Virus record (IMG/VR): IMGVR_UViG_3300044614_002195
Span: 1 to 64,000 of that record
Source of the DNA: a virus
DNA length: 64,000 bases
Strand: one strand, 5' to 3'
Program-made: the position numbers and the translations under genes
Notes under the pieces: generated by a model
What the model saw: the letters and a program-made list of their open reading frames with translations, nothing else
The model's database searches: none
What the model was told of the DNA's origin: nothing
Part shown: piece by piece, positions 12,528-55,392 of the stretch
Position numbering within the stretch: the stretch's first letter is position 1
Layout of the letters: each line of letters begins with the position of its first letter

Positions 12528-12740
12528 TTAAGCTAGCACGTCAAAAGCTTCTCTGCAAAGTCTTTTTAACATACCCTCTACTTCTTCATCCTTAAGCCTT
12601 TCAAAGTTTTTATAGGCAACCCGCTCACCGTCAAACGTAGACTTTAAAACACAAGAACCATCGTAAACGATTGTTATCTCATCTGTATCCGTGTTATAAT
12701 CAAATTCAAAAGTCATCTGTTCTTGTTGTATTTTTAGCAA
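12528..12740 (-). CDS. Small hypothetical protein
   Basis: 70-aa track ORF with TTG start; an internal ATG (MTFEF) may be the true start. Confidence 0.55.
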   Translation of the reverse strand: MLKIQQEQMTFEFDYNTDTDEITIVYDGSCVLKSTFDGERVAYKNFERLKDEEVEGMLKRLCREAFDVLA

Positions 12741-12754
12741 CTAATCACTAATAT
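12726..12754 (+). promoter_or_regulatory. Sigma70-type promoter for the RNAP beta middle fragment
   Basis: TTGTAT-N17-TAATAT, 7 nt before ATG 12762. Confidence 0.65.
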
Positions 12755-12761
12755 AACTAAT

Positions 12762-13454
12762 ATGGCTACTACAAAACAAGAAAAAATAAATAAGCTTAAA
12801 GAATATTTTAAAAACATGAAGTTAGACGCGTCCGTCATGGGTAGAACCCTAGGAAGTCCGACTACTTTTGTAACTCCGCAAATAATGCTAGATGCGTCGG
12901 CTAAACTTTTAAAAATATATGGTCGACAGGCAGATCCAGACGATAGAGACAATCTTGTTTTCTCAAAGTTTATGGGTCCTGAGGACCATGTGAAAGAGCA
13001 TATTGAACATGATGCAGGAAAAATTCAATTTAAAGCTAAAAGCAAACTAAGACAAAAAAGAAACCTCTCCTGGCTACATGCAGGGTTCTTTTCTCCTCAA
13101 GTAAAGTCTGTTTTTGTGGGAAATGCACTGAGTCAGAATATTGAGGGAGTAAATCCTATGGAGCAATATATGCTGGCTCACAAGGTCACTAAGATGGGTG
13201 AAGGCGGGATAGGTTCTACGCAAGCAATCCCAGAAACTTCTCGCGAGGTTAACGAATCACAGTTTGGGCTTCTTGACCCTATCCAGACAGTAGAAGCAAA
13301 CACCATCGGGGTAGTAAATTTTTTCGTTAACAACACGAGGAAAGGCGCTGACGGAAAGCTTTATCGCCAGGTAATTGACAATGCTACAAATAAGCCTGTA
13401 TGGATTGATCATCAAGAGTTCCTTTCTTCTACGATTGAGATTCCTGAGTATTAG
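12762..13454 (+). CDS. rpoB: RNA polymerase beta subunit, middle fragment (fork/rifampicin-pocket region)
   Basis: DDRDNLVFSKF; SQNIEGVNPMEQYMLAHKVTKMGEGG; REVNESQFGLLDPIQTVEANTIG align by eye to DDIDHLGNRR, SQFMDQNNPL...RRISALGPGG and [23 protein letters not shown]. Confidence 0.88.
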   Translation: MATTKQEKINKLKEYFKNMKLDASVMGRTLGSPTTFVTPQIMLDASAKLLKIYGRQADPDDRDNLVFSKFMGPEDHVKEHIEHDAGKIQFKAKSKLRQKRNLSWLHAGFFSPQVKSVFVGNALSQNIEGVNPMEQYMLAHKVTKMGEGGIGSTQAIPETSREVNESQFGLLDPIQTVEANTIGVVNFFVNNTRKGADGKLYRQVIDNATNKPVWIDHQEFLSSTIEIPEY

Positions 13455-13884
13455 AGGCAGACCATTTTTGCGTCGGGCATTGTTCGTTTGCTAGCCAAGG
13501 CTTTATATTACTCTCACCAGATAGCACGCAGTGACCTATGTTGGGAGATCTCTCATGACTATCCCAGAACGAGCAACCTTTACAGGCAGTAATGCGACTC
13601 AAGCAATCTTCTTTTTTAACTACAGGGAAGCCTAATATTGCCCAACGGAAAACTGACAGCTCGTAGTTATTTTTTAATGAGTTTAATGAAACTATATCTG
13701 TAGCTGCAGGAGTAGAAACATTGCTAGCTTCTAAAACCTCTAATAGTTTTTCTCTAGATACACTGAGTTCGGTCCTCTGTTCGTTCCACTCACCGTTTTT
13801 TTCAATCTCATTAACAGTGTTTGATGCAGTTTTTGAATAGTTTTGCAAGTCTTTCGAGGTGAATACAATTTTTTCGTTTTGCAT
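13429..13884 (-). CDS. Protein with C-terminal DUF6171-like Cys motif
   Basis: RITACKGC...GHC...CPTQKW. Confidence 0.65.
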   Translation of the reverse strand: MQNEKIVFTSKDLQNYSKTASNTVNEIEKNGEWNEQRTELSVSREKLLEVLEASNVSTPAATDIVSLNSLKNNYELSVFRWAILGFPVVKKEDCLSRITACKGCSFWDSHERSPNIGHCVLSGESNIKPWLANEQCPTQKWSASNTQESQS

Positions 13885-13903
13885 AATTTAAAGTCTGTAG
13901 TGT

Positions 13904-14785
13904 TTAAGAAAAAACTAAAAGTTCTTCTTCTTCTTGATAATAGTCTGTAATCCGAGTATTTAATTTTTTAATCTCTTCTTCAAGAATTTGTCTCACAGTA
14001 GGCATGTTTTCATGAATTAAAACTAAAAAATTAGAGTATTGGTTATTTAAATATTCTAAGTTATTAGGAGTTTTAAAATGTTCTATGTTTTCTATGGTTA
14101 GAGTTAAATCAGGTATGTTTCTTAGTTTATTAATAACTAGTAAATCTTTAAATTTAAGAGCAACTACGCAAAAATTAACAATGTCTTCTTCTGTTGTCTC
14201 ATACTGTTCTTTCACCGCATCCTCTTCCCGCCATTTACCTACAGGACATTTTTCATTAGCTATGTTTAATTTATACTTGATGGAGCACCCGCATTTCAAG
14301 CACTGACCTGTACCTGCGAAGGCTTCAATTTTAAAATATTCGCAACCTTTACACAGTTCTAACCTTTTTTGATACTCATTTTCATTTGTGCTGCGTGCTT
14401 GATTTACAGGTATTTTTTTTAACTTTGCCTTTAAATTTTTTACTGTATTGTATATAGCTACTGAGTCATCCTTATCGGGGTCTGGTAAAAATCCTGAGAA
14501 AGGTGCCTGCTTTGGTTGTATAGATTTTTTTTGCTCTACATTTTTTAAAAAGCCTGCCCACGAAGAAGCTAATAAATCTTTTACTTTAGGATCTTCATCT
14601 AATCTTTTTTTCCAATAGCTAAATAAAGCATTTTCTTTTCTCCTATGCATTCTGTGAAATGCTCCATCTAGCAGGTATAAATCTCTTTTATCTGCACGTT
14701 CTTTAATAGTCATGGCGTACATGACTATTTCTAGTTTTTCATATTCTGACAATTTGTTTAATTCTTCTAAAGTAAAATTGTACAT
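13904..14785 (-). CDS. Protein with central DUF6171-like Cys motif
   Basis: RLELCKGC...QCLKCGC..KYK...KCPVGKW; start reassigned to ATG 14785 (MYNFTLEEL). Confidence 0.7.
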   Translation of the reverse strand: MYNFTLEELNKLSEYEKLEIVMYAMTIKERADKRDLYLLDGAFHRMHRRKENALFSYWKKRLDEDPKVKDLLASSWAGFLKNVEQKKSIQPKQAPFSGFLPDPDKDDSVAIYNTVKNLKAKLKKIPVNQARSTNENEYQKRLELCKGCEYFKIEAFAGTGQCLKCGCSIKYKLNIANEKCPVGKWREEDAVKEQYETTEEDIVNFCVVALKFKDLLVINKLRNIPDLTLTIENIEHFKTPNNLEYLNNQYSNFLVLIHENMPTVRQILEEEIKKLNTRITDYYQEEEELLVFS

Positions 14786-14799
14786 ATATAGCTTAATTT

Positions 14800-15021
14800 T
14801 TAATCGTCGTTGCAAGGTGTGTAGACGCAAGAGCAATTTGGACCATTCGGACTATAATCTCCAGGACAGCAGCAGCATTTTGCTCCACTTTTACAATTAC
14901 CGCATGCACAGCCAGTTTCTCCTCCGCAACATTCAGTGGCGGCAGCTGTACCGCACTCACATCCTTTTAATCCACCTCCAGTACAATTACACTCACAGTT
15001 AGATCCTTCGCCTCCCAGCAT
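14800..15021 (-). CDS. Small Cys-rich, metallothionein-like protein (17 Cys in 73 aa)
   Basis: CxCxC, CxC, CC and CCCC clusters; fits the operon spacing between its neighbours. Confidence 0.7.
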   Translation of the reverse strand: MLGGEGSNCECNCTGGGLKGCECGTAAATECCGGETGCACGNCKSGAKCCCCPGDYSPNGPNCSCVYTPCNDD

Positions 15022-15039
15022 AATTAAATAATTTGTATA

Positions 15040-54401: not shown

Positions 54402-54405
54402 ACAT

Positions 54406-54639
54406 ATGACCTCCTTTTCAGCAGGGTTCATAGCTGAAGCCGCAGTAATGGGGTTGTCCTCTTCGGAGGCAACCCAGTTACTTAAAAGAGCTGCAGAATA
54501 TCCAGGGATGGAGCAATTAACATCTCATGAGCACAACACTGAAGAAGACCCTTCCTCCATGGATGTGTTAAAAGAACTTCTACAGCAGGACATGATAAAC
54601 AAAAATTTTGGTGGGTATAAACACAAAATTAATATCTAA
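54406..54639 (+). CDS. Small protein with the head-type helical leader
   Basis: SFSAGFIAEAAVMGL...LLKRAA. Confidence 0.55.
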   Translation: MTSFSAGFIAEAAVMGLSSSEATQLLKRAAEYPGMEQLTSHEHNTEEDPSSMDVLKELLQQDMINKNFGGYKHKINI

Positions 54640-54842
54640 TGAAAGTAGTAGTCACAGGCGATTTCAGAGAGCCTATCTTGCTTGATACAGATAAAGCCAC
54701 AGGTCTTTTAATATTCTCTGACGAAGGCAGGCCTAATGTAATATATAGGATAGTCGGAAAAGGAAGAGCCTGGGTTAGATATACTAAAGGCGAAGATGAA
54801 AATTTTGACGAAGTAGCAAAATCTCTAGGACTATTAAAATAA
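54639..54842 (+). CDS. Small hypothetical protein
   Basis: 67-aa ORF, TAATG-coupled. Confidence 0.6.
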   Translation: MKVVVTGDFREPILLDTDKATGLLIFSDEGRPNVIYRIVGKGRAWVRYTKGEDENFDEVAKSLGLLK

Positions 54843-54853
54843 AACTAATACCG

Positions 54854-54882
54854 TTGCATTTAAATAGTAAAAGAGCTATAAT
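54854..54882 (+). promoter_or_regulatory. Sigma70-type promoter for the tube gene
   Basis: TTGCAT-N17-TATAAT. Confidence 0.75.
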
Positions 54883-54914
54883 ATTAACATCAACAACAAA
54901 CCTAATAAAAACAT

Positions 54915-55337
54915 ATGGCAGATTTATATAAACATCAACACGCAACAGCAATAGCGCCATTTACGACAGACAAGTGCGCCATAAATTGGGGAGGACCTGT
55001 TTTCGCAGCAAACCAGGTATCTGTATCCTATACGCAGCAGGTGCAACGCAGACGTACTATTGGAAATAAAAACGTTATGCTCTGGGCAAATTTACCTAGC
55101 GGTCAGATTACTATAGCTAGAATGATGGGAGAAAACTCGAAAGAGATTTACAGTAAAAATGGCTGGAACATGTGTACCCCTACAGATATCACGCTTGAAA
55201 CAAAAGGCTGCAAAGGCTCAGTTAAATTTACAGCCAAAGATTGTCTTGTTGTCAATTATCAGATACAGCTTGAAACAGAAGGATTGACTGTTATCGATAA
55301 TCTTACTGTCGAATTCCTTGAGTTATCCCAAGGGTAA
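54915..55337 (+). CDS. Tail tube protein
   Basis: 140-aa beta-rich protein after the sheath (VSVSYTQQVQRRRTIG, GQITIARM, TVIDNLTVEFLEL). Confidence 0.7.
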   Translation: MADLYKHQHATAIAPFTTDKCAINWGGPVFAANQVSVSYTQQVQRRRTIGNKNVMLWANLPSGQITIARMMGENSKEIYSKNGWNMCTPTDITLETKGCKGSVKFTAKDCLVVNYQIQLETEGLTVIDNLTVEFLELSQG

Positions 55338-55363
55338 TTCTGAAGTACTTCTAGTATATTTCC

Positions 55364-55392
55364 TTGCAACAATAGCCCTAGCCTTATATATT
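55364..55392 (+). promoter_or_regulatory. Sigma70-type promoter
   Basis: TTGCAA-N17-TATATT upstream of ATG 55412. Confidence 0.6.

Follow-up and report, generated by a model that had tools for sequence, protein, structure and literature searches.

The first 64,000 nucleotides (nt) of the IMG/VR virus record IMGVR_UViG_3300044614_002195, hereafter the window, raise the question of which RNA polymerase (RNAP) transcribes the late genes of a phage that encodes an RNAP of its own. The phage contig to which the window belongs, as its first 64 kb, is 198,289 bp long and has a G+C content of ~40%, and positions given below refer to the window unless they are labeled as genome coordinates. In the original prediction, eleven elements of the form TTGnnn-N17-(T/G)Annn(T/C) were proposed as promoters in this region, and all eleven, each with its 17-nt spacer, are present where they were claimed. 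On the sequence evidence, these eleven sites and at least three more are sigma70-type promoters (-35 box, 17-nt spacer, -10 box) which head late transcription units, including those of four RNAP gene pieces, the head protease, the capsid operon and other particle genes. The further members of this late class are located at 45247 on the plus strand and at 19569-19597 and 17412-17440 on the minus strand.

Enrichment of sigma70-type promoters in upstream intergenic DNA

The enrichment implied by the original prediction is not evident over the window as a whole, where the pattern yields 212 matches compared with 170.8 ± 12.2 in shuffled sequence, a count of little meaning since the pattern is very loose. 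It is strong, by contrast, in the upstream intergenic DNA. Among the 22 upstream regions of the window between 12.5 and 58 kb (2,045 nt in total), a sense-oriented TTGN3-N17-TAN3T element occurs in twelve, against an expectation of 0.77 ± 0.86, and none of 300 dinucleotide shuffles reaches this number. The antisense control returned the element in two of these 22 regions, and boxes spaced by 15, 16 or 18 nt are found in none of them. The looser pattern of the original prediction is itself present in 10/14 plus-strand late regions (expected: 1.0). Furthermore, when a sigma70 position weight matrix (PWM) was applied to all 89 upstream regions across the genome, 16 scored ≥10, compared with 3.1 ± 1.7 in shuffles, four in the antisense orientation and 1.5 in coding controls. 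No other two-part motif, for example of the extracytoplasmic function (ECF) type, rose above shuffles in the intergenic DNA, and k-mer enrichment yielded only TATAAT-type words, terminator tails and A/C-rich leaders.

The elements might alternatively represent chance matches in AT-rich spacers, without promoter function. The looseness of the pattern (212 against 171 expected in the window) and the many PWM hits which are also located inside genes are compatible with this explanation. It is, however, rendered extremely improbable by an excess of 9- to 15-fold in the intergenic DNA upstream of genes, which is specific to both strand and spacer length, and by the retention of the elements position for position in related phages while the spacers diverge.

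Conservation and architecture of the late promoters

Conservation was assessed in nine uncultured related lake phages, with RNAPs that are 68-81% identical to that encoded in the window. The nearest cultured kin are Salmonella phage Arash (OQ632216) and the Vibrio phages D69, D148 and D181, which share 30-32% identity over the 997-amino acid (aa) RNAP piece. In the related phages, ten of the eleven sites retain TTG, TA...T and the spacing of 17 nt, as well as their position relative to the gene, while the sequence of the spacer drifts. The late-class consensus reads TTG(A/C)(T/A)(A/T)-N17-TA(A/T)AAT, and in 54/66 good instances, scored without a spacer prior, the spacer is exactly 17 nt long. 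The -35 TTG is found in 60/66 conserved instances and T-12, A-11 and T-7 in 61, 66 and 62 of them, respectively, although the choice of sites by means of the matrix has to some extent biased these numbers. Within the -10 box only these three positions are fixed, in addition to the TTG situated 17 nt away. The TTG at -35, the T-12/A-11/T-7 signature, the 17-nt spacer and the sense placement upstream of genes are all shared with bacterial sigma70 promoters. The spacing is, however, stricter than is usual for these, and several of the -10 boxes lie only 6-7 nt from an ATG, likewise unlike bacterial promoters. As the -10 box ends 6-7 nt before the start codon at 12726, 27156 and 48771, the mRNAs initiated at these three sites are probably leaderless.

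Several of the elements precede RNAP genes. At 12726-12754 (plus strand), the -10 end of TTGTAT-N17-TAATAT is located 7 nt from the ATG of the gene for the middle piece of the beta subunit, and the arrangement TTGnnT-N17-TAnTAT-N7/8-ATG is present in 4/4 genomes. A TTGCTT-N17-TATAAT element (26812-26840, plus strand; PWM score: 11.0) lies before a 100-aa gene (26857-27159) and the gene for the 997-aa RNAP piece, and corresponds to TTGnnn-N17-TAnnnT with unrelated spacers in 7/7 relatives. The latter gene is preceded at a distance of 6 nt from its ATG by TTGATA-N17-TAACAT (27156-27184, plus strand; PWM score: 10.9), which is kept in 6/9 genomes with 5-7 nt between the -10 box and the ATG. On the minus strand, TTGCTT-N17-TATTTT (19569-19597) heads the open reading frame (ORF) at 19340-19558 and the gene for the N-terminal piece of beta (18688-19353), and is retained as TTGCnn-N17-TAnnnT in relatives.

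The remaining sites are associated with particle genes and their neighbors. TTGATA-N17-TAAAAT (33665-33693, plus strand; PWM score: 12.9) serves the gene at 33715-35925, a homologue of the Arash virion protein gp218, and is near-identical in 8/9 genomes. A palindrome, CTTGATATACAAG, at 33662-33676 overlaps the -35 box of this element, is likewise identical in 8/9 genomes and may constitute a regulator binding site. The element at 37952-37980 (TTGAAA-N17-TATAAC, plus strand) is distinguished by an extended -10 (TGn) and the lack of a T at -7; its -35 box overlaps the stop codon of the upstream gene, and TGnTATAA(C/A) is observed in 9/9 genomes. After the head-protease gene, TTGGAA-N17-TAACAT (44059-44087, plus strand) recurs as TTGGAn-N17-TAAsAT in 6/6 genomes with variable spacers, and TTTACA-N17-TAAAAT (45247-45275, plus strand; PWM score: 11.0), which did not form part of the original list, is situated upstream of 45304-46221 and kept in 4/6 genomes. 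The capsid-operon promoter, TTGACT-N17-GACAAT (47130-47158, plus strand), lacks T-12 and is retained in 6/6 genomes along with the flanking sequences AAAATATTG and ATTWATATAACTTT. It is followed by a leader of ~110 nt (47159-47268), conserved in relatives, which harbors a small hairpin with a few compensating changes and subsequently an A/C-rich stretch and AGGAG, and for which no Rfam match was obtained.

The highest PWM score in the window (13.4) belongs to TTGATA-N17-TATAAT (48771-48799, plus strand), which follows a terminator and lies 7 nt from the ATG of 48807-49055; no orthologue was available for comparison among the relatives. TTGCAA-N17-TAAACT (51268-51296, plus strand), upstream of a 1020-aa gene (51339-54401), is kept in 5/5 genomes, while TTGCAT-N17-TATAAT (54854-54882, plus strand), upstream of 54915-55337, is kept in 6/6, with spacers of unrelated sequence that are always 17 nt long. 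TTGCAA-N17-TATATT (55364-55392, plus strand) is similarly kept in 6/6 genomes, with a spacer of 16 nt in four relatives, 17 nt in the window and ~18 nt in one relative. Its -10 box falls within the loop of a terminator hairpin (55375-55402), the stem of which covaries through compensating substitutions among the relatives while the loop, TTATATATTRAG, is constant. As this loop holds the -10 box of the next promoter, a terminator and a promoter are combined at 55364.

The phage RNA polymerase

The RNAP encoded behind several of these promoters has an unusual layout, in which three genes, spread over both strands, encode beta and the last of its parts is joined to the first half of beta'. The N-terminal piece of beta (221 aa; 18688-19353, minus strand) was identified by tblastn against residues 36-143 of Arash gp206 (e-value: 1.6e-14). 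The middle piece (230 aa; 12762-13454, plus strand) contains the Pfam domain RNA_pol_Rpb2_3 and corresponds to residues 240-469 of Arash gp206. The 997-aa product of 27191-30184 (plus strand; Pfam domains Rpb2_6, Rpb1_1 and Rpb1_2) is a fusion of the C-terminal half of beta with the N-terminal half of beta', and the remaining, C-terminal half of beta' is encoded at 31788-33641 (617 aa, plus strand; Pfam domains Rpb1_5 and Rpb1_3; Arash gp216, e-value: 7e-58). Only this one set of four pieces was retrieved from the 198-kb genome by tblastn with the Arash RNAP proteins, a search which a very divergent second set could escape. The best 60 matches listed for the 997-aa piece in the PDB are all bacterial RNAP subunit chains, none of which is labeled as a phage enzyme.

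Alignment with the E. coli subunits supports the claim that the flap-tip region of beta and the clamp helices of beta' are retained, as both segments align without loss. At the position of the flap-tip helix, the beta piece has a helix-like segment which is conserved in the lineage and flanked by short insertions, and the clamp helices are kept at full length. The N-terminal zinc-binding domain of beta' is absent, and V occupies the clamp-helix position aligned to E. coli R275, a contact residue like Q406 and N409 of sigma.

A further element, AATAGTCTTTATTTTTA, is located between the RNAP genes at 30212-30229, 14 nt upstream of a 66-aa gene (30244-30444). Each of the nine relatives retains it. 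It does not resemble a sigma70 promoter, and no close second copy of it occurs in the genome.

Sigma factors encoded by the phage

The suggestion that sigma and alpha homologues might be encoded elsewhere in the genome held for sigma, with two sigma70-family genes found outside the window, and failed for alpha, of which, as of omega, no homologue was found. The first (genome 66350-66982) forms part of the baseplate operon and encodes a 210-aa, three-domain sigma factor, recognized on the basis of Sigma70_r3 and its predicted structure. The Pfam model Sigma70_r3 matches with 35.9 bits (cut-off: 25.3), the RpoD, SigA and SigB models match over regions 2-3, and a profile search against solved structures gave an e-value of 1.4e-8 to SigB. 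An AlphaFold model built from 65 sequences (predicted local distance difference test, pLDDT: 89.8) places domains sigma2, sigma3 and sigma4 in order, while a model from six sequences was poor (pLDDT: 59). The 49 Foldseek matches listed are all sigma-factor chains or sigma models, with e-values of ~1e-6 to 2e-5 over ~220 aligned columns. Orthologues sharing 72-83% identity are present in 5/5 long relatives, and the wider family comprises 2,783 representative clusters, mostly of ~230 aa; co-occurrence of this sigma family with RNAP was checked within the cultured-phage collection. The C-terminal helix-turn-helix matches Sigma70_r4 in 11/65 family members.

The residues Y430, W433, W434, Q437 and T440, which characterize regions 2.3/2.4 of primary sigmas, are not retained as a set in the baseplate-operon sigma. 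In both MAFFT and HMMER alignments, H, N and S are found at the positions of Y430, W433 and W434, respectively, and it is thus not a primary (group 1) sigma factor. Further differences concern H455 and E458, which are contacts to the extended -10, and the positions aligned to Q406 and N409. Given that the flap-tip and clamp helices are kept and that sigma70-family genes are encoded by the phage, the polymerase is, as judged from these sequences, of the sigma-dependent type, unlike those of phiKZ and AR9.

The second gene (genome 140153-140794) encodes an ECF-type sigma factor (TIGR02937; 58 bits, cut-off: 42.9). Since it is a bona fide member of the sigma70 family, has ECF-type counterparts in 4/5 relatives and is located in the non-structural region, it could be envisaged to redirect either the phage core or the host core toward the late promoters in the style of a sigma cascade. 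ECF sigmas require a -35 and a -10 box at a rigid distance, and the strict 17-nt spacing would fit this. The ECF-type sigmas of the relatives are, however, mutually only ~28-31% identical, and none was found in a relative that is 94% complete, yet the late promoters are invariant. In addition, TTGnnn/TAnnnT is not a usual ECF motif, and the search of the intergenic DNA gave no other enriched two-part motif. As such, we consider a switch by the ECF-type sigma improbable.

A second promoter class and terminator tails

A second class of promoter consists of a 16-nt word, TGGTATAATATATTGA, which resembles an extended -10 without a -35 box and precedes small early-type genes bracketed by terminators, as well as a tRNA cluster. 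Copies are located on the plus strand at 1012-1027, 6064-6079 and 8427-8442 of the window and at genome positions 91222, 145189, 157282 and 159775, with a genome copy ahead of the tRNA cluster at 157321-157647. Seven to eight copies are present in this genome and in each of three relatives, and two in a fourth, all on the forward strand, compared with 0-1 in the control. The TGn of this class is shared with bacterial extended -10 promoters, from which it differs in the conservation of seven more bases downstream of the -10 box.

The genome of Arash contains 30 copies of a related kind of word, GGTATAAG (extended consensus TGGTATAAGtaaRGTGTAA), on the minus strand between ~20 and 140 kb and one on the other strand. 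These precede the start codons of non-structural genes by ~20-35 nt, and the word, which is not described in the Arash study, has the appearance of a promoter specific to the phage. A -10 box with G at -7 is poorly suited to host sigma70, and the Arash word is therefore probably read by the phage's own enzyme. In the phage under study, the TGGTATAAT promoter class likewise fits the phage enzyme better than the late class appears to do.

Intrinsic terminators followed by a conserved tail, composed of a T-run and AGCTATCAG, were also observed at 2990-3005, 6480-6495 and 8685-8700 of the window and at several positions between 147 and 164 kb of the genome.

Which enzyme reads the late promoters

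Coliphage N4 uses a virion polymerase for its early genes, while the host sigma70 holoenzyme transcribes its late genes, among them that of the polymerase, from sigma70-like promoters. A comparable division of labor is the explanation we favor here, tentatively and with somewhat less than even confidence. The phage core and the three-domain sigma (66350-66982) would be made late, packed in the particle and injected; the resulting phage holoenzyme would fire the TGGTATAAT class; and the -35/17/-10 late promoters would be read by a primary-sigma holoenzyme, most likely the RNAP of the host itself. This scheme is favored since the late class has a primary-sigma grammar, while the phage sigma lacks the residues that read it, and since the RNAP genes sit among the particle genes behind late-class promoters. 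Packaging of the enzyme is suggested by the presence of the RNAP proteins gp206 and gp216 and the sigma gp10 in purified Arash particles (PMC10585845). The virion enzyme of N4 differs in being a single-subunit, T7-like and sigma-free polymerase, accompanied by a second phage polymerase for the middle genes, whereas the phage in the window encodes a two-barrel core of bacterial type with its own sigma.

In the original prediction, the RNAP was envisaged as a replacement core which borrows a sigma70-type factor from the host or the phage. The data presented above support this in part, namely as regards a sigma-using phage polymerase, and transcription from the eleven sites by this polymerase is a conjecture. 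That the phage core borrows the primary sigma of the host for the late promoters would accord with their canonical primary-sigma grammar and with the presence of a flap-tip-like helix and clamp helices. It is made less likely by the V at the R275 position and by the changes at the Q406 and N409 positions of the phage sigma, which are clamp-helix contacts; the latter changes suggest a privately co-evolved pair. The beta' zinc-binding domain is, moreover, absent, and according to a recent review phage RNAPs do not stably bind host sigma (PMC13282480). Overall, borrowing of the host sigma appears distinctly improbable.

An autonomous system, in which the phage core and the conserved phage sigma read both promoter classes and timing is set by promoter strength and regulators, is unlikely on balance but represents the main alternative. 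Like a primary sigma, the phage sigma would then accept either a -10 box with TGn or a -10 box combined with a -35 box 17 nt away. The sigma has domains 2, 3 and 4, the core retains both sigma docking elements, and the lineage has conserved the sigma, the core and the two promoter classes together. Site 37952 blends features of the two classes, the strict 17-nt spacing is compatible with one dedicated sigma, and RNAP ranks first among the proteins detected in particle preparations of Arash (PMC10585845). Against these points, the sigma lacks the primary-sigma residues that read and melt TAnnnT, and the grammars of the two classes differ (TGGTATAA and a conserved downstream 7-mer versus TTG-17-TAnnnT). 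The non-structural genes of Arash use TATAAG, and phages with a single virion RNAP usually leave their late genes to the host enzyme. Should such a self-contained system of core and private sigma, carried in the particle, nevertheless be real, the lineage would have kept or re-created the bacterial code of promoters with a sigma devoid of the residues by which a -10 box is usually read.

Several observations weigh against the preferred division between an injected phage enzyme and the host holoenzyme. The region-4 helix-turn-helix of the phage sigma could allow it to read a -35 box, and the strict 17-nt spacing could equally indicate a specialized sigma. The early class of the lake phages keeps a T at -7, such that the host sigma could read it too, and the GGTATAA word shows no excess in Vibrio phage D69, which shares the RNAP and sigma; the word is as such not claimed for the whole family. 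Host hints conflict, with two related contigs (L048 and L049) binned in metagenome-assembled genomes of different phyla (Saprospiraceae versus Gammaproteobacteria). Bacteroidota promoters (TTG/TAnnTTTG) are unlike the late-class sites, and a Bacteroidota host would thus make transcription by the host enzyme unlikely and shift weight to the autonomous system. The authors of the Arash study caution that enzymes detected in particles may be carry-over from the lysate (PMC10585845), and no transcriptome of this phage or of Arash, nor any later paper on Arash transcription, was found.

Particle genes and genomic context

Pfam and PHROGs returned nothing for most of the structural proteins, and the gene labels consequently rest on homology to Arash. 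Of the original labels, those of the RNAP pieces and the head protease could be supported, as could those of the major capsid protein and one further structural gene, while the designations scaffold, neck, tube and spike were unverifiable. The head protease is encoded at 42600-44051 and the major capsid protein, a homologue of Arash gp226, at 47739-48698. The 1020-aa structural protein encoded at 51339-54401, possibly a sheath protein, matches in its C-terminal part Arash gp236, for which the annotation says no more than structural protein. The portal and large terminase genes were located outside the window by homology to Arash.

Two long minus-strand ORFs at 23343-26715 lie in different frames and share 512 nt. 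Of these, the 608-aa ORF (24889-26715) is kept in the relatives, while the first ~200 residues of the 685-aa ORF are not, and the true start of the latter is thus probably further downstream. A PWM hit at 25452 (minus strand) was discarded from the promoter candidates, as it falls inside the conserved 608-aa ORF and the start of the neighboring gene had been called incorrectly.

A megablast comparison of 20 kb against the phage collection yielded no match, and the 'moraphage' (PMC12619734) belongs to another lineage, one without RNAP. The phage transfer-messenger RNA (tmRNA; genome 134682-135073) encodes an unusually long tag of 30 residues ending in LLAA, which is uninformative with regard to the host.

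Relation to known phage systems

Arash, D69, D148 and D181 similarly encode a bacterial-type RNAP among their particle genes, and a small sigma is present in the baseplate region of Arash (gp10) and D69 (10995-11684). Arash, too, has a strand-specific promoter word, which precedes its non-structural genes. The systems differ in that Arash joins beta and the N-terminal half of beta' in a single 1525-aa protein, where the phage in the window has beta in three genes. Furthermore, the second Arash sigma (gp196) is RpoD/RpoS-like rather than ECF-type, the early word of Arash ends in G rather than T, and no clear -35/-10 promoters were seen in most of the structural-gene spacers of Arash. In the Arash study, gp10 was detected at 100% coverage in particle preparations, alongside the RNAP subunits, themselves detected more than any other protein there, and the RNAP and sigma were annotated without analysis of promoters, mechanism or the role of the sigma (PMC10585845). 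No paper analyzing this promoter, RNAP and sigma system was found.

The beta and beta' homologues of phiKZ and AR9 are likewise split over several genes, and in these phages, as predicted here, the enzyme is probably injected with the DNA. Reviews agree with the statement in the original prediction that phiKZ and AR9 promoters are not sigma70-like, and describe two RNAP sets and no sigma70-family homologue in these phages (PMC7824862, PMC13282480). The phage in the window differs in having one detected RNAP set, two sigma70-family genes and sigma70-like promoters.

According to the reviews, one of which dates from 2026, large phages have either a multisubunit RNAP without sigma or a sigma without RNAP (PMC7824862, PMC13282480). 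The lineage described here combines an RNAP and a sigma of its own with bacterial-looking promoters, and thereby cuts across this division. The promoters are ordinary in themselves, and the point of interest is which enzyme reads them. As Arash is cultured, transcription-start mapping and in vitro transcription are feasible at present. We suggest that the lineage would provide a natural test, either of how a sigma and its core diverge under a fixed promoter code, or of how a phage may split the work of transcription between an injected enzyme and that of its host.

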